This document shows positions 24,060-35,398 of a DNA stretch of 35,398 bases, piece after piece; position 1 is the stretch's first letter, and each line of letters opens with the position of its first letter. The notes below the pieces were generated by a model that saw nothing but the letters and a program-made list of their open reading frames with translations, searched no databases and was not told the DNA's origin. The stretch lies in IMG/VR virus record IMGVR_UViG_2541047928_000016. One strand, written 5' to 3'. Origin of the DNA: a virus (Duplodnaviria; Heunggongvirae; Uroviricota; Caudoviricetes). The position numbers were made by a program, and so were the translations under genes.

Positions 24060-25570
24060 CATATCCCCGGTAAAACAAGTAACAAACCACCCGAAAATGA
24101 ACACCAGAAACGCGACTTAAGAATCTACCCTATGAATGGATATGCACTCAACCGAATCGATCTTGGTTTCAATCTATTTTATCGGGATCAGGCTTCTTTT
24201 TAGGTAACTTCGGGGGCTTAACTTGCTGATGACTTTGCGTTCGGCGCGTAAGCCAGGGATGGTCAGCTTTAGATTTAACATAGTATTTTGAGCGTAAATC
24301 AATACGGGCATTATCCACTCGTTCATGGACACTCTTTTCATCATCCAGTGGTATAGGCTCCGGGCCATCAACATACTTTTCCCAGCCCAGCGCTTTCCCG
24401 TCATACAGAACGTTAATTTCACCGTCAAAGTTCTCACATACAGTAACAACTGAATGCCTAAGTCGATATCCCCGGCCCTCACTGCGTACCTGAAACGCAC
24501 TGCTTTTGTACTGGAAAGTGAGATTTTTAGACAGAACGCGCTTCGCCTGTAGGCTGAAGATATAACCCAGTTCCTCTTCAGAATGGTGCACATCAAGATG
24601 AGCATTATCAGTAGTACGAGGCGACGTAGCGAACCGGTTGTTATAGGCTTCAATAAAGGTCGGCAACCATGCATTTGCTGTTTCAATATCACTGATATTC
24701 TGAAGCCGCATTTCTTTGACCAGCCTGTCCTGTAGTGTCTGATTGGCGCGCTCTACCCGCCCTTTTGCCTGCGGGCTGTTGGCATGGATTGGCTCGATGC
24801 CCAGTGTCTTTATCGCACGAGTGAACTGGGTCAGCTCACCTTCCCGCTCTGGGTTATTTACCCTGAATATACTGTGTCTATCAGAGTAGAGAGCGAGCGG
24901 TACGCCATGATCATTAAGGTAACCCCGGAGGGTTTCCATGTAAGCCCGGGTTGTTTCAGCAGGCACAAAACGCAACGCCATCAACGCACTGGTGGCATCA
25001 TCAATGAAAACGATCAGTGTACATCTGGGGCCTCGATTTTCAAACCAGTCATGAGGTGAGCCATCAATCTGGATCAGTTCACCGTAAGATGGTCGTCGCA
25101 TGCGGCGTTGATATATACGGGCAATTTTACGACGGCGTTCACGCCATAACCCCTCTTCTATCATCCACTTTCTGAGAGTTTCAACGGATAAAGATAAACC
25201 GTGTATCTCGCGCAATTTTTCGCACGCAAACGTAGGTCCAAAATCAGCGTAACGGCCTTTGAGGAGTGAAATTACTGTTGCTCTGAATTCAGTAGAAAAG
25301 GAATTATTAGGACGCTTTCCACGTCGGTGGGAAACCAGACCAGAAGGCCCTTCATTTCTATACCGTTGCACCAGACGTTTAACCTGCCGAATAGAAATGC
25401 CAATGCGTGCCGCAGCTTGTTCCTGAGTAATATGTCGATTAATTGACTCCTGAATAATCTGAAGTCGGTGGAGTTCCTTATGACTCATCGTAACAGTCTC
25501 TTTGATCATGAAAAATCCCCCAGAGAATTGTCTGGGGACATTTTAGAATGGTTCAAAGGGGACATTACAG
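24060..25570 (-). mobile_element. Probable insertion sequence carrying a single DDE transposase; ends not resolved (no clean terminal inverted repeats or target-site duplication found)
   Basis: Single transposase gene interrupting the phage early region between flxA and the replication genes; candidate right end TGTAATGTCCCC at 25558-25569; boundaries approximate. Confidence 0.3.
24169..25509 (-). CDS. DDE-type transposase with N-terminal HTH and integrase-core (rve) domain, 446 aa; IS481/ISNCY-like
   Basis: MIKETVTMSHKELHRLQIIQESINRHITQEQAAARIGISIRQVKRLVQRYR... then LIQIDGSPHDW ... YSDRHSIF ... conserved acidic residues and Lys/Pro-rich C-tail; family-level call is from memory. Confidence 0.8.
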   Translation of the reverse strand: MIKETVTMSHKELHRLQIIQESINRHITQEQAAARIGISIRQVKRLVQRYRNEGPSGLVSHRRGKRPNNSFSTEFRATVISLLKGRYADFGPTFACEKLREIHGLSLSVETLRKWMIEEGLWRERRRKIARIYQRRMRRPSYGELIQIDGSPHDWFENRGPRCTLIVFIDDATSALMALRFVPAETTRAYMETLRGYLNDHGVPLALYSDRHSIFRVNNPEREGELTQFTRAIKTLGIEPIHANSPQAKGRVERANQTLQDRLVKEMRLQNISDIETANAWLPTFIEAYNNRFATSPRTTDNAHLDVHHSEEELGYIFSLQAKRVLSKNLTFQYKSSAFQVRSEGRGYRLRHSVVTVCENFDGEINVLYDGKALGWEKYVDGPEPIPLDDEKSVHERVDNARIDLRSKYYVKSKADHPWLTRRTQSHQQVKPPKLPKKKPDPDKID

Positions 25571-25962
25571 CTTGGTGTTAACAATAGCCTGCTTCTCCTT
25601 GCCTTCCGGCACTCGCGACAGATTATGTTTAGACGACTGTCGTAGCGACGTATTTCTCCGTCAGGTAATGACCAGATAAGGTCCGGATCAACCACAGCAG
25701 GTTTCTTCACCTTTGCCCTCGAGAGTTTTTTGCGGGCGTTTTGCCAGTCCTTACGCGCCTGTTCAGACGGGAATAACCCGTAACCAGAGCTGTATACATC
25801 GCCACTGGCAACCAGCTCTCTGGCCAGAACGCTCATCAGATATCTTGTTGCCCCAGTTTTAGCTTCCAGTTGTCGTAACGTCTCGCGCCCACTCTGGCGT
25901 ACGAGTTCCACCACCTGCCCTTTAATTTTTTCCCGCTCTTCTTGTGTAAAAACTTTTGCCAC
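25543..25962 (-). CDS. Hypothetical protein (139 aa) downstream of the replication initiator, in the position of a helicase loader; C-terminus may be altered by the adjacent IS
   Basis: GTG start with strong AGGAGG 5 nt upstream; basic Arg/Lys-rich C-terminal half; last codons fall within the candidate IS end. Confidence 0.55.
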   Translation of the reverse strand: MAKVFTQEEREKIKGQVVELVRQSGRETLRQLEAKTGATRYLMSVLARELVASGDVYSSGYGLFPSEQARKDWQNARKKLSRAKVKKPAVVDPDLIWSLPDGEIRRYDSRLNIICRECRKARRSRLLLTPSCNVPFEPF

Positions 25963-26002
25963 AAGTCCTCCTGAACATTACTTTATACCCTAAAATCAAC
26001 AC

Positions 26003-26968
26003 TTATCCCCTGAAACCAGGCGGAATTTCTGTATCCGGTTCAGAAATATGATTCACACAACGCTGTACAGGTGAACGTCCCAGGCGGATGACCAGTTCGT
26101 CCCATTTTTCGCGGAGTTTTGACGGGCTCATGATGTTTTTTACCCAGAATTGATCTCGCTGTACCCGACCAAACATTTCGCAAATTTGTCTGTGGCTTCT
26201 GCCATCCAGCATCCGCATTGTGCGCACGTCATTGGCCCAGGCTGTCCAGTTAGGCTCTTTTGGTCGCATGATCTCTCCATCGTCGCTGGCAGCCTGTTCG
26301 TAAAGGTTCACGATCCGCCCCCAAATCCACTGCGCACACGCCAAATCCTCCCTGCTACCCCACTGGCGTTTTTTCGCACTAAACACAACCGCGTCGGGGT
26401 TCCGGGTTAAAAAATCCTGTTCAGCGGTCTGCGGGTCCGGTTGCGAAGCTTCCGGACGAAAAGTGTTTTTATTCTCTGTAGTAATCTCTGTTGTATTCTC
26501 TGTAAGATCATCAGGCCATTTTGACCCGATGACATTGGGTCGTTTTGAACCAATGGAGCGTTTCATTTTGACCTCTTCCATCGTGTCATTTTGACCTGAT
26601 GGAGCGGCGCATTTTAAACCGATGGATTCGCTCAATTTGCCACCATCTAAAAGCTCGCTCCCGTAGTTGATCGTGTAGAAATTGGTCATATCGCGCTTTG
26701 ATTTATTGAGCTTTTCACAACGCAAAAGCCCCAGCGTTTTCAGACTTGCAAACGCGCGCTTTAACGTTGACTCTGACCAGAATGGGAACTGTTCCAGCCA
26801 TTGTTCCGTTGTGTTGTAAATCCAGCGAACACCATCACATTCCATGCCGGAATTGGTATCTCTCAACCAGTAATGCAACTGCTGCAACACAATGGCTTCA
26901 TTTAAGCCAATCTTCATCGCAAGCTGTGTGTTTATAACCAGTGGGCGTTCAGCAAAAAGAAGGCTCAT
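26003..26968 (-). CDS. Phage replication initiator (O-like replisome organiser), 321 aa from ATG 26968 (track TTG start at 27022)
   Basis: N-terminal HTH-like region MSLLFAERPLVINTQLAMKIGLNEAIVLQQLHYWL...; iteron array embedded mid-gene as in lambda O; position after the Cro/CII-slot genes. Confidence 0.75.
   Translation of the reverse strand: MSLLFAERPLVINTQLAMKIGLNEAIVLQQLHYWLRDTNSGMECDGVRWIYNTTEQWLEQFPFWSESTLKRAFASLKTLGLLRCEKLNKSKRDMTNFYTINYGSELLDGGKLSESIGLKCAAPSGQNDTMEEVKMKRSIGSKRPNVIGSKWPDDLTENTTEITTENKNTFRPEASQPDPQTAEQDFLTRNPDAVVFSAKKRQWGSREDLACAQWIWGRIVNLYEQAASDDGEIMRPKEPNWTAWANDVRTMRMLDGRSHRQICEMFGRVQRDQFWVKNIMSPSKLREKWDELVIRLGRSPVQRCVNHISEPDTEIPPGFRG
26461..26650. repeat. Candidate origin of replication: about 6 degenerate direct repeats (iterons) of period about 22-23 bp (ATTTTGACC..GATGGAGCG) plus 3 copies of TCTCTGT, inside the O-like gene
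   Basis: Seen directly: cattttgacccgatgacattgggtcg / ttttgaaccaatggagcg / tttcattttgacctcttccatcg / tgtcattttgacctgatggagcg / gcgcattttaaaccgatggattcg. Confidence 0.6.
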
Positions 26969-27470
26969 AATTCCATCCAGCTTTTTGTTGGTATTGCTGT
27001 CGATACGCAAGTTTGAAAGCAATTGCTTTTTCTATAAGTTCGTCAGTTTCACGATCCACTACGGCAGGATCAGCAAAAAGCAGTCCGGACTCCACCACAT
27101 CGCCATATTCTTTGTTTAACCCGGCGATCATGTACGTGATGCTTTTTCCGTCATTAATTTCACGATACAACCTGAAATCATTAATCCGAATAGCCTCCAT
27201 AATTGCAGGCACTAGCGCCGTGAACTTTTCACGCTTATCCCTGGTGTCGATAGCCTTCCAGCGTTCGAATATCTTCACTCGATTAACGCCAAGTGCTCGC
27301 TGATCAACCGCGCCACCTTCATCTGTGACACGCTGAACATCGATGTTCGGGCGCTCTTTCAAAGCCCAGAATGCTTCAGTGATTAATATCGTCGCCTGCT
27401 CCTGTGTCATTCCTGGTCGACATATCCAGGCATCCAGAGCCTCACGAGCCTGTTCAGGAGTGATTTTCAT
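26949..27470 (-). CDS. Hypothetical protein (173 aa) in the cII position between the cro-like gene and the replication initiator
   Basis: ATG at 27468-27470; MKITPEQAREALDAWICRPGMTQEQATILITEAFWALKERPNIDVQRVTDEGGAVDQRALGVNRVKIFERWKAIDTRDKREKF...; no family recognised. Confidence 0.6.
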   Translation of the reverse strand: MKITPEQAREALDAWICRPGMTQEQATILITEAFWALKERPNIDVQRVTDEGGAVDQRALGVNRVKIFERWKAIDTRDKREKFTALVPAIMEAIRINDFRLYREINDGKSITYMIAGLNKEYGDVVESGLLFADPAVVDRETDELIEKAIAFKLAYRQQYQQKAGWNYEPSFC

Positions 27471-27681
27471 TGTTCAACCGCCCCGCCCGCTTCGTCTTAC
27501 GATATTCGTCATAAACCTTGGGATCATACAGAAGCTCGCCGCCAGATGCCTCCTGTAGACGCATCGCGCGACCTTCAGGAACCAGCTCTTGCCATTGAGA
27601 AACAGCAGATGGGTCAACGCCAGCAGCTTTCGCTACTTTGGCTTTCGTACCGTAAAAATTAATTACGTCTGATTTAAACAT
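27454..27681 (-). CDS. dicC: Cro-like repressor, DicC-like (75 aa from ATG 27681)
   Basis: C-terminal ...ELVPEGRAMRLQEASGGELLYDPKVYDEYRKTKRAGRLNNENHS closely resembles recalled K-12 DicC; divergent from dicA. Confidence 0.75.
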   Translation of the reverse strand: MFKSDVINFYGTKAKVAKAAGVDPSAVSQWQELVPEGRAMRLQEASGGELLYDPKVYDEYRKTKRAGRLNNENHS

Positions 27682-27758
27682 CGCACCTCCAATATTGAGT
27701 TTTCTCAATGCTAATCACTCAAGGAATCTCAAGTCAAGGGTTATTAAGATATCTAAAT

Positions 27759-28166
27759 ATGAACGAGAAAACTTTAGGTCAACGCATTAGAGAAAGACGT
27801 AAGCAGGTAGGCTTAAGTCAAAACGGTTTAAGCAAAGCTGCTGGCGTATCTGGCTCATCAATTTCATTATGGGAAAGTGACCATACAGCCCCGCGCGGGC
27901 AAAATTTGCATCGCCTCGCCGAGGTATTGCAATGTTCACCAACTTGGATACTGTTTGGCGACGAGGACAAAACACCAGCTCCCCCTGTTTCACTCGATAG
28001 TGCCTTAGACTTATCGGAAGATGAGTTAGAGATGCTGCGTTTGTATCGCGCACTTCCTAAATCAGAGCAACAAGCACAACTCAGCGAACTCCGCGCCCGC
28101 GTTGAGAATTTTAATCGCCTGTTCACCGAGCTATTAGAGGCTCGCAAACGCAACAAGCATCAATAA
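27759..28166 (+). CDS. dicA: CI-type repressor with XRE-family HTH, DicA-like (135 aa)
   Basis: From ATG 27759: MNEKTLGQRIRERRKQVGLSQNGLSKAAGVSGSSISLWESDHTAPRGQNLHRLAEVLQCSPTWILFGDEDK...; HTH motif; 135 aa. Confidence 0.85.
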   Translation: MNEKTLGQRIRERRKQVGLSQNGLSKAAGVSGSSISLWESDHTAPRGQNLHRLAEVLQCSPTWILFGDEDKTPAPPVSLDSALDLSEDELEMLRLYRALPKSEQQAQLSELRARVENFNRLFTELLEARKRNKHQ

Positions 28167-28358
28167 TCATCCCTTCACAAAATTTTAAAGCCTTACATTT
28201 CAATGTATTGGCTTTATCTTGCGCCAACACTTGAGTTTTCTCATCAAAAAAACTTGACGAAAAATAATGAGAAAACTAAATTACCTCCATCAAGACACCG
28301 CACGGTGTTCTCAGCAAACAGTTCCGCTACCCCGGCGTTAAGGGGAAATGAGGTCAGC

Positions 28359-28514
28359 ATGGATACTATCGATCTTGGCAACAGCGAATCTCTGGTATGT
28401 GGCGTGTTCCCCAACCAGGACGGCACGTTCACCGCGATGACGTATACCAAAAGCAAAACGTTTAAAACCGAAAATGGTGCCCGTCGCTGGCTGGAAAGAA
28501 ACTCAGGTGAGTGA
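28359..28514 (+). CDS. ydfA: Small protein YdfA-like (51 aa)
   Basis: MDTIDLGNSESLVCGVFPNQDGTFTAMTYTKSKTFKTENGARRWLERNSGE; GAGG RBS; first gene of the dicB operon. Confidence 0.7.
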   Translation: MDTIDLGNSESLVCGVFPNQDGTFTAMTYTKSKTFKTENGARRWLERNSGE

Positions 28515-28515
28515 T

Positions 28516-29091
28516 ATGGATTTCGACACAATCATGGAAAAGGCTTACGAAGAATACTTCGAAGGCCTTGCCGAAGGCGAAGAAGCTCTCAGCTTCAGTG
28601 AGTTTAAACAGGCACTCAGAATAAGAATGTGCTCTCACAATGACGCGGAGCACAAATATGAGAAGCAAAATCAGACCGCAGAAAATTTTGTTCTGGAACC
28701 CGGAGAAACGCTTTTCAAAATTCCCGTTACGTGCCCCATTTGCGGTTTTACATCAGAAGAACTTGACGACTCCTGTAACAATCAGGAAACAACCAAGTAT
28801 GTCGAAGATGATACCGAGTGCGCACGAAGAACGATTATATCCACGAGTCCAAACTCCAGGACCAATAAATCTCACTATGAGAGGGTGATTAATCCACTCC
28901 CCCAAACCAATAAAAAAGATGCCGGAGGACAAAAAACCCAATGGAACAACGGGATATCTGTCAAAAAAAGACGTTCCATTAAAGACAAACAACGCAGCGC
29001 CAACAACTGTAAGAGCTTTATACCAGTAATCAATTTTCATGTTCTTAAGCGGATTTATTGGTGGTTGCGACATTGCTTAATGAATCCTTAA
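28516..29091 (+). CDS. Hypothetical protein (191 aa), YdfB-like N-terminus; 3' extent uncertain
   Basis: ATG 28516 one nt after ydfA stop; MDFDTIMEKAYEEYFEGLAEGEEALSFSEFKQALRIRMCSHN...; a 106-aa antisense ORF (28753-29073) with three predicted TM helices overlaps it, so one of the two may be spurious. Confidence 0.4.
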   Translation: MDFDTIMEKAYEEYFEGLAEGEEALSFSEFKQALRIRMCSHNDAEHKYEKQNQTAENFVLEPGETLFKIPVTCPICGFTSEELDDSCNNQETTKYVEDDTECARRTIISTSPNSRTNKSHYERVINPLPQTNKKDAGGQKTQWNNGISVKKRRSIKDKQRSANNCKSFIPVINFHVLKRIYWWLRHCLMNP

Positions 29092-29350
29092 AACTGTGGT
29101 GATTTTAAGGATACCACCTCGCCTGACGTGGTTAAAAGCAGGCACACAACACGAAAGCGCACGGCGAAGTTCGTCTCACTGTACGGTGTCGTTAAATTTA
29201 ATTCGACCGTGCGCTTCCGGTTGTGGCAACCCGCAAAATGGCGCGGCGGTAAGTATGGCGGGGTTATTCCTTCCCCGTTGAGGACACCGGGTTGTCAGGT
29301 TGACCATACGCTTAAGTGACAACCCCGCTGCAACGCCCTCTGTTATCAAT

Positions 29351-29408
29351 TTTCTGGTGACGTTTGGCGGTATCAGTTTTACTCCGTGACTGCTCTGCCG
29401 CCCTTTTT
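29351..29408 (+). ncRNA. dicF: DicF small RNA (ftsZ/manX-targeting antisense sRNA) with terminator hairpin and U-tract
   Basis: tttctggtgacgtttggcggtatcagttttactccgtgactgctctgccgcccttttt matches my recall of K-12 DicF; 170 nt upstream of dicB. Confidence 0.8.
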
Positions 29409-29577
29409 AAAGTGAATTTTGTGATGCGGTGAATACGGCTAAGCGCACGCGGAACAGTTAAAACCAAAAACAGTGTTATGGGTGGATTCTCTGTATCCGA
29501 CGTTAATTGTTAACTGGTTAACGTCACCTGGAGGCACCAGGCACTGCATCACAAAATTCATTGTTGAGGACGCGATA

Positions 29578-29766
29578 ATGAAAACGTTATTACCAAACGT
29601 TAATACGTCTGAAGGTTGTTTTGAAATTGGTGTCACTATCAGTAACCCTGTATTTACTGAAGATGCCATTAACAAGAGAAAACAAGAACGGGAGCTATTA
29701 AATAAAATATGCATTGTTTCAATGCTGGCTCGTTTACGTCTGATGCCAAAAGGATGTGCACAATGA
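29578..29766 (+). CDS. dicB: Cell division inhibitor DicB (62 aa)
   Basis: MKTLLPNVNTSEGCFEIGVTISNPVFTEDAINKRKQERELLNKICIVSMLARLRLMPKGCAQ; GAGGA RBS. Confidence 0.85.
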   Translation: MKTLLPNVNTSEGCFEIGVTISNPVFTEDAINKRKQERELLNKICIVSMLARLRLMPKGCAQ

Positions 29767-29954
29767 ATTCAGCATTTGCGCTTGTTCTGACAGTTTTTCT
29801 TGTTTCCGGAGTGCCAGTTGATATTGCAGTCAGTGTTCACAGGACAATGCAGGAGTGTATGACTGCAGCAACCGAACAGAAAATTCCCGGTAACTGTTAC
29901 CCGGTCGATAAAGTTATTCACCAGGATAATATCGAAATCCCGGCAGGTCTTTAA
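29763..29954 (+). CDS. ydfD: Small membrane protein YdfD-like (63 aa), reported lysis protein
   Basis: MNSAFALVLTVFLVSGVPVDIAVSVHRTMQECMTAATEQKIPGNCYPVDKVIHQDNIEIPAGL; ATGA overlap with dicB stop; N-terminal TM helix. Confidence 0.8.
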   Translation: MNSAFALVLTVFLVSGVPVDIAVSVHRTMQECMTAATEQKIPGNCYPVDKVIHQDNIEIPAGL

Positions 29955-30047
29955 AACAGTTCCGTAATAAATACCCGGTTTCATTCTTATATGCCAGCAA
30001 TGGCAGGGATTTGTTCATCCTTAAATCTGTCATGAGGTTAAAACAAA

Positions 30048-32519
30048 ATGAGTAAAGTCTTTATTTGCGCCGCTATTCCTGACGAACTGGCAACAAGGGA
30101 AGAAGGCGCTGTGGCTGTAGCCACAGCCATTGAAGCTGGCGACGAACGCCGTGCTCGAGCAAAATTTCACTGGCAGTTCCTGGAACATTATCCGGCTGCT
30201 CAGGACTGCGCTTATAAATTTATTGTCTGCGAGGATAAACCTGGCATACCCCGCCCTGCCCTCGATTCATGGGATGCTGAATATATGCAGGAAAACCGCT
30301 GGGATGAGGAGTCTGCTTCTTTTGTCCCGGTTGAGACTGAATCCGATCCGATGAACGTCACTTTTGACAAGCTGGCCCCTGAAGTACAGAACGCTGTCAT
30401 GGTTAAGTTCGACACATGTGAAAACATCACCGTTGATATGGTTATTAGCGCACAGGAATTGTTGCAGGAAGACATGGCAACATTCGACGGACATATCGTT
30501 GAAGCGTTGATGAAAATGCCAGAAGTTAACGCCATGTATCCGGAGCTTAAGTTGCACGCCATTGGGTGGGTTAAGCATAAATGTATTCCTGGTGCTAAAT
30601 GGCCCGAAATTCAGGCAGAGATGCGCATCTGGAAAAAACGTCGCGAAGGTGAACGCAAGGAAACCGGAAAATACACGTCTGTTGTTGATCTCGCCCGCGC
30701 CAGAGCCAATCAACAGTACACTGAAAATTCAACAGGAAAAATCAGCCCGGTCATTGCTGCCATTCATCGCGAATACAAGCAGACATGGAAAACACTGGAT
30801 GACGAACTGGCCTACGCTCTCTGGCCTGGTGATGTGGATGCCGGAAACATTGACGGCAGCATCCATCGCTGGGCAAAAAAAGAAGTTATCGACAACGACC
30901 GCGAAGACTGGAAGCGTATCTCGGCATCAATGCGCAAACAGCCTGATGCCCTTCGCTACGACCGCCAAACTATTTTTGGCCTTGTCCGTGAGCGTCCGAT
31001 CGACATTCACAAAGATCCCGTAGCACTGAACAAATATATCTGCGAATACCTGACGACAAAGGGCGTGTTTGAGAATGAAGAAACAGACCTGGGCACTGTT
31101 GATGTTCTCCAGTCATCAGAAACACAAACTGATGCAGTGGAAACTGAGGTATCTGATATCCCAAAAAATGAAACCGCGCCGGAAGCTGAACCATCTGTAG
31201 AGCGTGAGGGGCCGTTCTATTTCCTCTTCGCAGATAAGGACGGAGAAAAATACGGTCGCGCAAACAAACTTTCTGGTCTGGATAAGGCACTGGCTGCTGG
31301 CGCCACTGAAATCACAAAAGAAGAATATTTTGCCCGAAAAAATGGCACATACACGGGCTTACCGCAAAATGTAGATACCGCTGAAGATTCAGAACAACCA
31401 GAGCCGATAAAAGTTACCGCTGACGAAGTAAACAAAATTATGCAGGCAGCCAATATCAGCCAGCCTGACGCCGATAAGTTGCTTGCTGCATCACGTGGTG
31501 AATTTGTTGAAGGGATTAGTGACCCGAATGATCCGAAATGGGTTAAGGGGATCCAGACCCGCGATTCTGTGAACCAGAACCAGCATGAATCGGAACGGAA
31601 CTACCAAAAAGCGGAACAAAACAGTCCAAATGCGTTACAAAACGAGCCAGAAACGAAACAGCCTGAACCAGTGGCGCAACAGGAAGTGGAAAAAGCCTGC
31701 ACCGCCTGCGGTCAGACCGGCGGCGGCAACTGCCCTGATTGTGGCGCGGTGATGGGCGACGCAACATACCAAGAAACATTCGATGAAGAGTATCAGGTTG
31801 AAGTTCAGGAAGATGATCCGGAGGAAATGGAAGGCGCTGAACATCCACACAAGGAGAACACTGGCGGCAATCAGCATCACAATAGCGATAATGAAACTGG
31901 CGAGACGGCAGATCACCCAATTAAGGTGAACGGTCATCACGAAATCACATCCACCAGCAGGACGTGTGACCATCTAATGATCGACCTTGAAACCATGGGA
32001 AAAAATCCTGATGCCCCGATCATCTCAATAGGTGCAATATTTTTCGATCCGCAAACCGGAGATATGGGACCGGAATTTAGTAAGACTATCGATCTGGAAA
32101 CTGCTGGCGGAGTCATTGATCGGGACACCATTAAATGGTGGCTTAAGCAATCACGCGAAGCGCAATCTGCCATTATGACCGATGAAATCCCGTTAGATGA
32201 TGCACTGTTACAATTGCGGGAATTTATCGACGAAAACTCCGGTGAATTTTTTGTTCAGGTTTGGGGAAATGGAGCCAACTTCGACAACACGATTTTGCGC
32301 CGTTCATACGAACGGCAGGGGATCCCCTGCCCGTGGCGTTACTACAACGATCGCGATGTACGCACAATCGTTGAGCTGGGGAAAGCCATAGACTTCGATG
32401 CCAGAACGGCTATTCCATTCGAAGGTGAGCGCCATAATGCACTTGATGACGCCCGTTACCAGGCAAAATACGTTTCAGTTATCTGGCAAAAACTGATCCC
32501 GAGTCAGGCTGATTCTTAA
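30048..32519 (+). CDS. Large multidomain protein (823 aa) with C-terminal DnaQ-like DEDDh 3'-5' exonuclease domain, internal zinc ribbon and acidic linker; YdfE-family
   Basis: Exo motifs HLMIDLETMG (Exo I), GNGANFDNTIL (Exo II), HNALDDARY (Exo III); zinc ribbon CTACGQTGGGNCPDCG; Glu/Asp/Gln-rich low-complexity segment aa 570-640. Confidence 0.85.
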   Translation: MSKVFICAAIPDELATREEGAVAVATAIEAGDERRARAKFHWQFLEHYPAAQDCAYKFIVCEDKPGIPRPALDSWDAEYMQENRWDEESASFVPVETESDPMNVTFDKLAPEVQNAVMVKFDTCENITVDMVISAQELLQEDMATFDGHIVEALMKMPEVNAMYPELKLHAIGWVKHKCIPGAKWPEIQAEMRIWKKRREGERKETGKYTSVVDLARARANQQYTENSTGKISPVIAAIHREYKQTWKTLDDELAYALWPGDVDAGNIDGSIHRWAKKEVIDNDREDWKRISASMRKQPDALRYDRQTIFGLVRERPIDIHKDPVALNKYICEYLTTKGVFENEETDLGTVDVLQSSETQTDAVETEVSDIPKNETAPEAEPSVEREGPFYFLFADKDGEKYGRANKLSGLDKALAAGATEITKEEYFARKNGTYTGLPQNVDTAEDSEQPEPIKVTADEVNKIMQAANISQPDADKLLAASRGEFVEGISDPNDPKWVKGIQTRDSVNQNQHESERNYQKAEQNSPNALQNEPETKQPEPVAQQEVEKACTACGQTGGGNCPDCGAVMGDATYQETFDEEYQVEVQEDDPEEMEGAEHPHKENTGGNQHHNSDNETGETADHPIKVNGHHEITSTSRTCDHLMIDLETMGKNPDAPIISIGAIFFDPQTGDMGPEFSKTIDLETAGGVIDRDTIKWWLKQSREAQSAIMTDEIPLDDALLQLREFIDENSGEFFVQVWGNGANFDNTILRRSYERQGIPCPWRYYNDRDVRTIVELGKAIDFDARTAIPFEGERHNALDDARYQAKYVSVIWQKLIPSQADS

Positions 32520-32591
32520 TGTTCAACTGTCGCCGGTTGTGACTGGTATTCTGCAACCGGCGCTCGTCTGATGTAAGAGATAAAGAAATCG

Positions 32592-32843
32592 ATGAGCGAA
32601 GTAATCATGATTGTCTCTCCCGGCAAATGGGTATCCGAAGAGCAGTTAATTGCGCTGAAAGGAATAAAAAAAGGTACGTTAAAAAAGGCCCGGGAAAAAT
32701 CGTTTATGGAAGGAAGGGAATATAAGCATGTCGCTCATGACGGTATGCCATGGGATAACAGTCCATGCTTTTACAACCTGGAAGAAATTGATCGCTGGAT
32801 TGAGCGCCAGGCATCAGCGAGACCAAGACGTCATCTTACTTGA
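32592..32843 (+). CDS. Excisionase-like small DNA-binding protein (83 aa)
   Basis: Small basic ORF immediately upstream of the integrase and ending 20 nt before it; the excisionase call rests on position and size only. Confidence 0.55.
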   Translation: MSEVIMIVSPGKWVSEEQLIALKGIKKGTLKKAREKSFMEGREYKHVAHDGMPWDNSPCFYNLEEIDRWIERQASARPRRHLT

Positions 32844-32862
32844 CTAAAAGCCACACTAACTA

Positions 32863-34158
32863 ATGAGAGAAGTTGAAATGAAATATCCGACAGGCGTGGA
32901 AAACCATGGAGGGAAATTACGTATCTGGTTTGTTTATAAAGGCGTAAGAGTCAGGGAAAATCTGGGGGTTCCTGACACAGCAAAAAACAGGCGCGTTGCA
33001 GGTGAACTACGCTCCTCTGTTTGTTACGCAATAAAAACTGGTGTTTTCGACTATGCAAAACAGTTTCCCTCCTCACGCAATCTGGAAAAATTTGGTGAGG
33101 CCCGACAAGATTTAACCATAAAAGAACTGGCTGAAAAATTTCTGGCACTGAAAGAAACTGAAGTCGCCAAAACATCACTCAACACATACCGTGCCGTCAT
33201 CAAAAATATCCTGAGCATAATCGGTGAAAAAAATCTTGCCTCATCGATTAATAAAGAAAAATTACTGGAGGTTCGTAAAGAGCTACTGACTGGATACCAG
33301 ATCCCCAAAAGTAACTATATTGTTACACAACCAGGGAGATCGGCTGTAACTGTAAATAATTACATGACAAATCTTAACGCCGTGTTCCAGTTTGGTGTTG
33401 ATAACGGTTACCTGGCAGATAATCCGTTTAAGGGGATCTCGCCATTAAAGGAATCAAGAACCATTCCGGATCCTCTTGCGCGGGAGGAATTTATCCGTCT
33501 TATCGATGCATGCAGAAATCAGCAAGCAAAAAATTTATGGTGTGTTTCTGTTTATACTGGCGTTCGCCCTGGTGAGCTGTGTGCACTTGGATGGGAGGAC
33601 ATAGATCTGAAAAATGGAACAATGATGATCAGGAGAAATTTAGCAAAAGACCGTTTCACGGTACCAAAAACACAGGCGGGAACCAATCGGGTCATTCATC
33701 TTATTAAGCCAGCAATCGACGCTCTCCGGAGTCAGATGACATTAACGAGACTGAGCAAAGAGCATATCATTGATGTTCACCTCAGAGAGTATGGCAGAAC
33801 AGAAAAACAAAAATGCACCTTTGTTTTTCAACCTGAAGTGTCAGCGAGAGTAAAAAATTATGGTGACCATTTTACCGTTGACTCAATAAGGCAGATGTGG
33901 GACGCAGCGATAAAACGTGCCGGACTCCGCCATCGAAAATCATATCAGTCGAGACATACTTATGCCTGCTGGTCGCTGACAGCTGGTGCTAACCCGGCAT
34001 TTATAGCAAACCAGATGGGCCATGCAGATGCGCAAATGGTATTTCAGGTATACGGAAAATGGATGTCTGAAAACAATAATGCACAGGTAGCTTTGTTAAA
34101 TACACAGTTAAGCGAGTTTGCCCCAACCATGCCCCATAACGAAGCAATGAAAAATTAA
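32863..34158 (+). CDS. Tyrosine site-specific integrase (lambda Int family), about 426-431 aa
   Basis: C-terminal catalytic region with conserved R (VYTGVRPGE), H-x-x-R (HRKSYQSRHTYA) and GH...VYGKW tyrosine; alternative ATG at 32878. Confidence 0.9.
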   Translation: MREVEMKYPTGVENHGGKLRIWFVYKGVRVRENLGVPDTAKNRRVAGELRSSVCYAIKTGVFDYAKQFPSSRNLEKFGEARQDLTIKELAEKFLALKETEVAKTSLNTYRAVIKNILSIIGEKNLASSINKEKLLEVRKELLTGYQIPKSNYIVTQPGRSAVTVNNYMTNLNAVFQFGVDNGYLADNPFKGISPLKESRTIPDPLAREEFIRLIDACRNQQAKNLWCVSVYTGVRPGELCALGWEDIDLKNGTMMIRRNLAKDRFTVPKTQAGTNRVIHLIKPAIDALRSQMTLTRLSKEHIIDVHLREYGRTEKQKCTFVFQPEVSARVKNYGDHFTVDSIRQMWDAAIKRAGLRHRKSYQSRHTYACWSLTAGANPAFIANQMGHADAQMVFQVYGKWMSENNNAQVALLNTQLSEFAPTMPHNEAMKN

Positions 34159-34186
34159 TTTAATATTTATCAAATAGTTAACACGC

Positions 34187-35398
34187 ATGACTCTTGAAAT
34201 CCATAACATCCAGAGCATTCTTGGGATCCAGTCGATCGACACCGGGATCCTCGGTGCGGTGATCGCCGGTATTATCGTCTGGATGCTGCATGAGCGATTC
34301 CATAATATCCGCCTGCCGGATGCGCTGGCATTCTTCGGCGGTACGCGCTTCGTACCAATCATCTCCTCGCTAGTGATGGGTCTTGTCGGCCTGGTGATTC
34401 CATTAGTCTGGCCGATTTTCGCCATGGGTATTAGCGGCTTAGGCCATATGATCAACAGCGCGGGAGATTTCGGACCGATGCTGTTTGGTACCGGTGAACG
34501 TCTGCTGTTGCCGTTTGGTCTGCATCACATTCTGGTGGCATTAATTCGCTTTACCGACGCAGGCGGCACGCAGGAAGTCTGCGGTCAAACCGTCAGCGGT
34601 GCACTGACCATCTTCCAGGCGCAATTGAGTTGCCCAACCACTCACGGTTTTTCTGAAAGCGCCACGCGTTTCCTTTCGCAAGGTAAAATGCCTGCGTTTC
34701 TCGGCGGTCTGCCAGGTGCAGCGTTAGCTATGTATCACTGTGCGCGCCCGGAAAATCGCCATAAAATTAAAGGTCTGCTGATTTCTGGCCTGATCGCCTG
34801 TGTCGTTGGCGGCACGACCGAACCGCTGGAATTCCTGTTCCTGTTCGTAGCGCCAGTTCTGTATGTCATCCACGCGCTGTTAACCGGCCTCGGCTTCACT
34901 GTCATGTCTGTGCTCGGCGTCACCATCGGTAATACCGACGGCAATATCATCGACTTTGTGGTGTTCGGTATTTTGCATGGTCTGTCAACCAAGTGGTACA
35001 TGGTGCCAGTAGTGGCGGCAATCTGGTTTGTCGTTTACTACATCATCTTCCGTTTCGCTATCACCCGCTTCAATCTCAAAACCCCGGGGCGCGATAGTGA
35101 AGTTGCCAGTTCAATCGAAAAAGCCGTTGCCGGTGCGCCGGGTAAATCAGGTTACAACGTTCCGGCAATCCTCGAAGCCTTAGGCGGTGCCGACAATATT
35201 GTCAGCCTCGATAACTGCATTACGCGTCTGCGTTTGTCTGTAAAAGATATGTCGCTTGTTAATGTGCAGGCACTGAAGGACAATCGGGCAATTGGCGTAG
35301 TACAACTTAATCAACATAACCTGCAGGTTGTTATCGGGCCACAAGTTCAGTCAGTAAAAGATGAAATGGCCGGTCTGATGCATACTGTCCAGGCATAA
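34187..35398 (+). CDS. PTS glucose-family EIICB component, 3' portion (403 aa); appears 5'-truncated at the prophage junction (possibly MalX/PtsG-like)
   Basis: Multiple TM helices then C-terminal EIIB domain with phosphorylation-site motif NCITRLRLSV; shorter than typical EIICB by roughly 70-120 N-terminal residues; integrase gene lies 29 nt upstream. Confidence 0.75.
   Translation: MTLEIHNIQSILGIQSIDTGILGAVIAGIIVWMLHERFHNIRLPDALAFFGGTRFVPIISSLVMGLVGLVIPLVWPIFAMGISGLGHMINSAGDFGPMLFGTGERLLLPFGLHHILVALIRFTDAGGTQEVCGQTVSGALTIFQAQLSCPTTHGFSESATRFLSQGKMPAFLGGLPGAALAMYHCARPENRHKIKGLLISGLIACVVGGTTEPLEFLFLFVAPVLYVIHALLTGLGFTVMSVLGVTIGNTDGNIIDFVVFGILHGLSTKWYMVPVVAAIWFVVYYIIFRFAITRFNLKTPGRDSEVASSIEKAVAGAPGKSGYNVPAILEALGGADNIVSLDNCITRLRLSVKDMSLVNVQALKDNRAIGVVQLNQHNLQVVIGPQVQSVKDEMAGLMHTVQA

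Follow-up and report, generated by a model that had tools for sequence, protein, structure and literature searches.

We asked what is encoded, and to what end, by the gene that occupies the exonuclease slot beside xis and int in a 35,398-nucleotide (nt) stretch of viral DNA (IMG/VR record IMGVR_UViG_2541047928_000016, Caudoviricetes), referred to throughout as the window. An initial annotation had proposed an open reading frame (ORF) of 823 amino acids (aa) here, and this ORF is indeed present, with an ATG start and an identical coding sequence in RefSeq (WP_000048324.1, labelled 'exonuclease'). Its product consists of a scaffold of the YdfE_N/YdfE_C type followed by a DexA-like DEDDh exonuclease domain. 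We conclude that it is a RecE-family scaffold carrying a swapped nuclease of opposite polarity, the 5'-3' PD-(D/E)XK nuclease of RecE having been replaced at the linker. The function that we infer for the whole chain, tentatively and at a little short of even confidence, is that of an exonuclease which, targeted by its scaffold, would digest DNA ends 3'-5' in the lytic cycle and would work independently of an annealase.

The nature of the effector is set by the C-terminal domain (aa 641-823). The three DnaQ-like motifs claimed for this region are present, as Exo I (D646-L-E648), Exo II (D746) and Exo III (H796-x4-D801), and a profile search supports the DnaQ-like fold, with Pfam PF16473 (Rv2179c-like) matching aa 642-813 over profile positions 2-177 of 177 (E 2.4e-67, 226.5 bits against a cutoff of 27). 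Pfam also gives a weak RNase_T match for the 823-aa protein. In a MAFFT alignment the catalytic residues coincide with D7, E9, D119, H186 and D191 of phage T4 DexA, and all five are invariant in nine stand-alone homologues and also across genera. DexA (8KEL/8KEN) is the closest solved relative of the domain: 8KEL was the best match in a PDB search with the single sequence (E 1.5e-6) and with a 16-sequence profile (E 5.6e-23), where it was followed by DnaQ (1.5e-5) and then by oligoribonucleases. DexA differs from the window protein in being a stand-alone enzyme of 227 aa from a virulent phage, with extra loops and no scaffold. The host enzymes ExoI (SbcB) and ExoX are DEDDh 3'-5' DNA exonucleases acting on recombination intermediates, an action reportedly described by Viswanathan and Lovett in 1999 and by Lovett in 2011; they are relatives at the superfamily level only and were not among the top PDB matches. 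The window protein clearly belongs to the DEDDh/PF16473 family as well as to the YdfE_N/YdfE_C families, while DNA as its substrate and 3'-5' as its direction of digestion are predicted from sequence.

PF16473 is named after the Mycobacterium tuberculosis RNase Rv2179c, many RefSeq copies of the gene bear the NCBI name '3'-5' exoribonuclease', and the gene adjoins int. All three points would suit an exoribonuclease that trims or degrades RNA, for instance the polycistronic dicBF/int transcript or host or defence RNAs. However, the domain profile that retrieves DexA did not retrieve Rv2179c from the PDB at E <= 0.01, and for this reason we down-weight a role like that of RNase AS; the label is taken from the title of the Pfam family and not from the nearest characterised relative, which is a DNA exonuclease. 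The other partners of the scaffold described below, a PD-(D/E)XK DNA nuclease and a Rad52-fold annealase, are likewise DNA-recombination proteins, and we consider an exoribonuclease decidedly improbable.

The N-terminal 500 residues, for which the initial annotation could name no fold, can in fact be assigned: aa 1-256 are YdfE, at 100% identity, and aa 262-627 resemble the N-terminal part of RecE. In the Qin prophage of K-12, ydfE (b1577) is a pseudogene, cut after residue 256 by IS2 with loss of the remainder including the nuclease; aa 1-256 of the window protein are identical to this truncated product, and the window gene is therefore the intact ydfE. Both copies have dicB and ydfD as neighbours. 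The N-terminal region is covered by Pfam YdfE_N (PF27430) and YdfE_C (PF27432), families of newer Pfam releases, as shown by hits already computed for proteins that match the window protein at 100% identity over aa 1-470. Its first module, N1, comprises an alpha/beta subdomain (about aa 1-95) and a helical one (about aa 105-205), which AlphaFold2 models with a predicted local distance difference test score (pLDDT) of about 80-90. Scaffolds of this kind have two types of N1, a YdfE type and a RecE type (PF06630). Segment-wise BLAST shows the window N1 to be distantly homologous to RecE aa 1-270, the link being made by a protein (P0235) that matches both types.

Downstream of N1, a helical 'mid' domain (AlphaFold2 pLDDT 81-90) is matched in most, though not all, of the relatives fused to DEDDh, PD-(D/E)XK or annealase domains, and a small domain named after its GPFY motif is kept in all YdfE-type relatives compared, whatever their C-terminus. 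The zinc ribbon (CxxC-x7-CxxC) and the highly acidic low-complexity stretch that had been noted ahead of the nuclease are both there (Table 1). RecE has the same ribbon at C517-C531. Outside the E. coli Rac/Qin block the ribbon is missing: the Citrobacter, Kluyvera, Atlantibacter and Enterobacter relatives lack it, so that it is not a family-wide feature. An acidic stretch of about 70 aa precedes the effector domain in nearly all relatives.

The relationship to RecE is closest just before the nuclease. BLASTP aligned aa 262-627 with K-12 RecE 278-592 (E 3e-62), and within this region aa 474-627, spanning the conserved motif DKLLAASRGEFV(E/D)GISDPNDPKW, the ribbon and the acidic linker, are about 85% identical to RecE 454-592. 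At the DNA level, blastn limits homology with recE to nt 1425-1867 of the gene. This block contains the motif DKLLAASRGEFVEGISDPNDPKW, the ribbon and most of the acidic linker, and its 3' end, at RecE codon 588, is the module-swap junction. Codon 588 is what we take to be the start of 'RecE588', a truncated and fully active recombineering fragment. The fragment is named 'E588' in PMC11257833, and a review places the nuclease domain of RecE at 564-866 (PMC11611040). Past the junction, neither BLAST nor tblastn detected similarity to RecE 601-866 (PD-(D/E)XK, RecB-like, DUF3799) and Pfam gave no match to it, which bears out the earlier statement that the nuclease is not of the PD-(D/E)XK type.

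The NCBIfam RecE equivalog (PRK09709) matches aa 246-623 to RecE 271-600 with 281 bits against a cutoff of 1269. The protein is thus not RecE: it departs from it in the nuclease domain, in the equivalog score and in the lack of a recT neighbour. It shares with RecE (exodeoxyribonuclease VIII of Rac) the overall plan of long scaffold, zinc ribbon, acidic linker and C-terminal nuclease, as well as the PL-type operon slot upstream of xis-int. It differs in having a DEDDh domain, predicted to be 3'-5', in place of the 5'-3' PD-(D/E)XK domain, in an N1 of YdfE type that is remotely related to RecE 1-270, and in that no recT follows it. The label 'exodeoxyribonuclease VIII' given to this gene in phage records is wrong.

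Two natural hybrids bear on the exchange. Protein P0123 joins RecE 1-600 (99% identity) to the DEDDh domain of the window protein (99% identity), a clean exchange at the linker, and in phage vB_EcoS-640R1 (locus L004, 3671-6112) a RecE-type N1 is combined with the linker and DEDDh domain of the window protein. Across the two, N1 is 92-99% identical to that of Rac RecE, and the linker and DEDDh domain are 98-99% identical to those of the window. Judged by these hybrids, Rac-like and Qin-like prophages appear still to recombine within this gene.

We then compared the C-termini that the scaffold carries. Relatives were gathered by searching 1.8 billion representatives at 50% identity, with two additional profile queries, followed by segment-wise BLAST; a direct protein search with aa 1-470 returned near-identical E. 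coli sequences only, and a genome scan with a five-sequence alignment returned 11 loci. At least four kinds of C-terminus were found. The DexA-like DEDDh domain occurs in the window protein, in P0122-P0126 and in numerous proteins from Citrobacter, Salmonella, Kluyvera and Atlantibacter whose N1 is of the RecE type. A PD-(D/E)XK nuclease is carried by RecE, P0139 and P0160, the last two joining it to a YdfE_N/YdfE_C scaffold. The third kind is a domain of about 280 aa in Enterobacter, Klebsiella, Pantoea, Citrobacter and Erwinia proteins labelled 'exodeoxyribonuclease VIII' in databases, and the fourth a 257-aa domain without a Pfam match (P0130, phrog_26058). Genes of the P0130 type, with a YdfE scaffold, are found in Enterobacter prophages (L020; L021, 6001-8109) in the same position between exonuclease slot and xis-int. 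The annealase-like C-terminal domain of nuclease-less relatives was identified as Rad52/Mgm101 by structure comparison only, and a PDB sequence-profile search with it gave no match. Depending on the phage, then, the partner of this one scaffold is a 5'-3' nuclease, a 3'-5' nuclease or a Rad52-fold annealase.

The initial annotation had suggested a recombination or anti-defence nuclease, and the RecE-type scaffold with its DNA-recombination partners supports the first half of that suggestion. The second half would have the enzyme attack the nucleic acid of an immune signal or effector, such as cyclic oligonucleotides or the multicopy single-stranded DNA (msDNA) of retrons. The gene does lie in an accessory region of a temperate phage, and PADLOC reports a weak match to a generic CRISPR-associated DEDDh model (E 1.8e-5). 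We rejected this match as evidence of a defence connection, as it reflects the common DEDDh fold only. The protein has no similarity to known anti-defence families, and its scaffold partners point to DNA recombination, leaving an anti-defence role very improbable.

The gene is common and under constraint. Of 5426 complete E. coli genomes, 3537 have at least 80% of the gene, a single cluster of 823-aa sequences numbers 23,183 members, and the gene is intact in the isolated phages HannyBb, Tritos, PhiR42_1 and mEp460_ev081; positions 25603-34206 of the window are 99% identical to HannyBb. We computed the ratio of nonsynonymous to synonymous substitution rates (dN/dS) for each module against the mEp460 and E. 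albertii alleles. It was 0.08-0.10 for N1, 0.11-0.12 for the mid domain, about 0.2 for the GPFY domain, 0.25-0.28 for the motif with the ribbon, and 0.18 for the DEDDh domain (mEp460 allele; few substitutions). Linkers, where countable, gave 0.7-0.9, and the first (aa 346-390) gave 0.68. Since the folded modules lie at 0.08-0.28 against 0.7-0.9 for linkers, it is the whole protein, and not the nuclease alone, that selection has kept. The IS2-disrupted pseudogene of K-12 and the fragmented Shigella copy (L010) might suggest a decaying remnant of cryptic prophages without present function. The isolated phages, the size of the cluster, the invariant catalytic residues and the selection on the folded modules largely refute this, and we find it scarcely credible.

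If the window gene belonged to a recombination module of the RecE-RecT kind, an annealase should be close by. With K-12 RecT and the Rad52-like domain as tblastn probes (Redβ and Erf were not searched by sequence), there was no match in the window or in ten other DEDDh-fusion loci of six lineages: E. coli L001, E. ruysiae L007, E. albertii L011, Shigella L010, phage 640R1 L004, mEp460 L005, Citrobacter koseri-type L018, Atlantibacter L022 and L023, and the complete HannyBb L027. In all ten, xis-int comes immediately after the fusion gene. RecT was found only beside the PD-(D/E)XK RecE of Rac. The annotation of HannyBb lists neither an annealase nor Gam, and the early-left operon of the window has no unassigned ORF of annealase size.

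Chi sites (GCTGGTGG), meanwhile, are more frequent than expected: the window has six against 1.24 expected, a number reached in 0 of 100 shuffles, and HannyBb has 7. One of them (31951-31958, - strand) lies within the exonuclease gene itself, in the acidic linker just ahead of the DEDDh domain. Because no annealase or Gam was found and Chi exceeds expectation, we place the phage of the window in the 'no Rec module, Chi-bearing' class, as this class appears in the available portion of the study by Zheng, Casjens, Davidson, Amundsen and Smith (Genome Res 2025; PMC12315714). That portion also reports that lambdoid phages have DnaQ-like 3'-5' nucleases, usually very near int, and that some RecE relatives ('RecE-2') have no nuclease fold. 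Both observations match our findings.

The last piece of evidence is the operon. As had been claimed, the gene stands directly upstream of xis, with no gene in between, and int follows. It is the last gene of a DicA-repressed PL-type operon ahead of xis-int, in an order that matches the dicBF operon of K-12. In the latter, transcription starts at a PL-like promoter under DicA repression, ydfE is said to be a member, and the characterised products are limited to YdfD, DicB and DicF (PMC10448788). A consensus scan for a promoter (or terminator) belonging to the exonuclease gene itself gave sites no more frequent than in shuffled sequence.

The gene is a PL-type, DicA-repressed early-left gene of a lambdoid phage. 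Under our preferred reading, the scaffold of about 620 residues would be a portable targeting or assembly module that, in lytic growth, takes one of several exchangeable effectors to the DNA ends of phage or host. The effector in this case would take nucleotides off DNA 3' ends, with no need of a phage annealase. RecBCD requires nearly blunt ends, which host 3' exonucleases help to supply. The trimming or blunting of 3'-tailed ends by the window protein might thus allow host RecBCD-Chi-RecA recombination, on which such phages depend, to act. Since the phage has Chi sites and neither an annealase nor Gam was found, trimming for RecBCD would be the most likely job of the enzyme, and an attack on 3' tails of competing DNA is less likely. 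We regard the scaffold as portable because of its fusion partners and because full-length RecE improves linear-linear recombination (PMC11611040). A broader version is conceivable though doubtful: the RecE/YdfE N-terminus would in general serve the temperate phages of enterobacteria as a portable platform, delivering their various DNA-end effectors to a single site or partner, and the DEDDh variant would represent an annealase-independent end-processing route. This route would have the opposite polarity and would belong to Chi-bearing phages dependent on host RecBCD.

Several points weigh against the trimming of DNA ends by a targeted exonuclease. The step that assists RecBCD is speculative, and the Chi density is moderate, at about 1 per 6 kb, far under that of phage LLS (1 per 1.9 kb). 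In the available portion of PMC12315714, DnaQ-type 3'-5' exonucleases are said to 'usually inhibit homologous recombination', and those near int are not counted as Rec-module proteins. Structure comparison gave no informative neighbour for the scaffold fold, N1 included, so that the case for a targeting module comes entirely from its domain partners. The function of the RecE N-terminus is still described as unknown (PMC11611040), and we found no functional study of ydfE in the literature. Finally, Morganella phage IME1369_02 (L024, 3986-4555), Yersinia phage YeP1 (L025, 3998-4570) and Escherichia phage Eeyore (L026, 3998-4570) each have a stand-alone DexA-like gene of about 190 aa directly upstream of xis-int; because these genes fill the same slot, the nuclease may act without any recombination scaffold.

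The surroundings of these stand-alone genes differ from those in the window. In Eeyore a gene resembling queuine-tRNA-ribosyltransferase adjoins the DexA-like gene, with a deoxynucleoside monophosphate (dNMP) phosphatase further upstream, and the YeP1 operon has an HD-superfamily hydrolase further upstream. Such neighbours hint at a tie to DNA modification or nucleotide metabolism. They would also fit a scavenging enzyme that turns fragments of host DNA into mononucleotides for phage DNA synthesis, the established role of T4 DexA (PMC12153337), and the window gene does belong to an early lytic operon. However, the operon has no endonuclease partner, and scavenging leaves the RecE-type scaffold unexplained. 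To our knowledge, the lambdoid phages investigated so far leave the host chromosome undegraded, which counts against scavenging as well; we think it improbable.

The likeness to DexA raises a further alternative, namely that the protein is a superinfection-exclusion or anti-phage nuclease of the kind termed 'HREX', digesting incoming T-even DNA with modifications of the 5-hydroxymethylcytosine (5hmC) type and sparing unmodified DNA. In vitro, the DexA homologue EcD broke down T4 DNA; it also gave E. coli protection against T4, and DexA homologues are most frequent in Escherichia (Kang et al., Nucleic Acids Research 2025; PMC12153337); the window domain is of this DexA-like DEDDh type and its catalytic residues are intact. 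The neighbour dicB is itself a phage-exclusion gene, according to the available portion of PMC6832061. The details fit less well. The residues proposed to recognise 5hmC in DexA are not kept, W152 corresponding to Y766 and D169 to A780 (the alignment near D169 is less certain). The tetramer residue D90, whose equivalent in EcD is A78, is retained as D718 in the window protein, where S87 corresponds to P715. EcD, compared here by its description and primers only, stands alone and starts at the Exo I motif, as its primer sequence indicates, with no RecE-like scaffold. The window gene sits in a DicA-repressed operon without a convincing promoter of its own and should therefore be silent in the lysogen. 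Exclusion would also leave unexplained a 620-aa scaffold that is common to RecE and an annealase. We judge this reading unlikely, and retain the trimming of DNA ends in lytic growth as the preferred one.

The coordinates of the gene, its modules and its neighbours are collected in Table 1.

Table 1. Features of the window that bear on the exonuclease gene, with position, strand and basis of assignment (DicF sRNA, small RNA; HTH, helix-turn-helix; D+E and K+R, share of the residues named).
Feature	Position	Strand	Basis or remark
Exonuclease gene, complete, 823 aa	30048..32519	+	ORF list, ATG start; intact allele of K-12 ydfE
N1 module, YdfE type, aa 1-230	30048..30737	+	100% identity to K-12 ydfE over aa 1-256
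Helical 'mid' domain, aa 240-345	30765..31082	+	BLASTP to RecE 278-360
First acidic low-complexity linker, aa 346-390	31083..31217	+	27% D+E, net charge -10
Small 'GPFY...GRANK...EI(S/T)xEEY' domain, aa 391-470	31218..31457	+	Conserved in YdfE-type relatives
DNA block in common with Rac recE	31472..31914	+	blastn against K-12 recE, 78% identity to recE nt 1365-1765
Zinc ribbon C551-x2-C554-x7-C562-x2-C565	31698..31742	+	Regular expression
Acidic linker abutting the nuclease, aa 576-640	31773..31967	+	28% D+E, 5% K+R, net charge -15
DexA-like DEDDh domain, predicted 3'-5' exonuclease, aa 641-823	31968..32519	+	Pfam, PDB profile search, residue mapping
DicA/CI-like HTH repressor, head of leftward operon	27708..28166	+	Pfam HTH_3; layout as K-12 Qin dicA
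DicF sRNA, upstream of the exonuclease gene in its operon	29352..29403	+	Rfam RF00039, 76.7 bits
dicB	29578..29766	+	Pfam DicB; annotation of identical region
ydfD, immediately upstream of the exonuclease gene	29763..29954	+	Pfam DUF1482; annotation of identical region
Excisionase (xis)	32592..32843	+	Pfam DUF1233
Tyrosine integrase (int)	32863..34158	+	Pfam Arm-DNA-bind_2, Phage_integrase
Chi sites	16627, 20609, 20661, 21194, 21251, 31951		Four cluster at 20.6-21.3 kb

The window as a whole is a lambdoid prophage. It has tail, head and terminase genes resembling those of lambda, lysis genes and a Q region on the - strand, along with an immunity region of the Qin/mEp460 type. From the repressor onward the gene order is dicA-like repressor, ydfA, an ORF derived from ydfB, DicF, dicB, ydfD, exonuclease, xis and int. 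A complete dicBF-type operon thus sits in a seemingly viable phage, beyond the cryptic remnants. The ydfB-derived ORF (28516-29091, +; 191 aa; phrog_35040) has the 34-residue N-terminus of YdfB followed by about 150 other residues with a CxxC pair, and overlaps on the opposite strand a hydrophobic 106-aa ORF without a family match (28753-29073, -); either of the two could be the real gene. In the part of the replication module that we scanned, an O-like initiator (26003-27022, -) is the only replication gene, with a Ren-like gene (25543-25962) next to it, and no helicase loader turned up there. Zheng et al. report this unusual O-like-only arrangement in phage LLS and 34 other lambdoid phages (PMC12315714). 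An ORF of 446 aa for a transposase like those of IS1202/ISEsa1 (24169-25509, -) lies between the Ren-like gene and the downstream early-right genes, and a related genome (L001) has a truncated copy at the same place. At the other end of the window, 29 bp past the int stop, an ORF (34187-35398, +) has the appearance, read from its translation, of the EIICB component of a phosphotransferase system (PTS), the usual N-terminal part of which is seemingly missing. Homology with HannyBb runs out at about 34206, which seems to put the attachment site at the 5' end of this PTS-like host gene.

Part of this picture is already known, in that the architecture is catalogued in databases and DnaQ-type nucleases near int have been reported. 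The fusion of a RecE scaffold to a DnaQ-type nuclease, its function and the Rad52-like fold of the nuclease-less relatives are not described in the available portion of PMC12315714. What appears to be new is the recognition that in a very common gene the nuclease of a RecE scaffold has been exchanged for one of opposite polarity, the occurrence of a Rad52-fold annealase on the same scaffold, and the consistent absence of an annealase partner from the DEDDh variant. About two-thirds of complete E. coli genomes carry the gene, by the coverage threshold given above, yet its labels vary between 'exonuclease', 'exoribonuclease' and, wrongly, 'exonuclease VIII'. Were the exclusion of T-even phages its true function after all, it would constitute a very widespread prophage-borne defence. 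The N-terminal two thirds of RecE have been known only for boosting linear-linear recombineering, and the presence of three effectors on one scaffold provides a handle on this region. Moreover, a recombination-slot nuclease of opposite polarity that occurs without an annealase in Chi-bearing phages could be relevant to the design of recombineering tools, and it bears on how lambdoid phages lacking a Rec module replicate and recombine.

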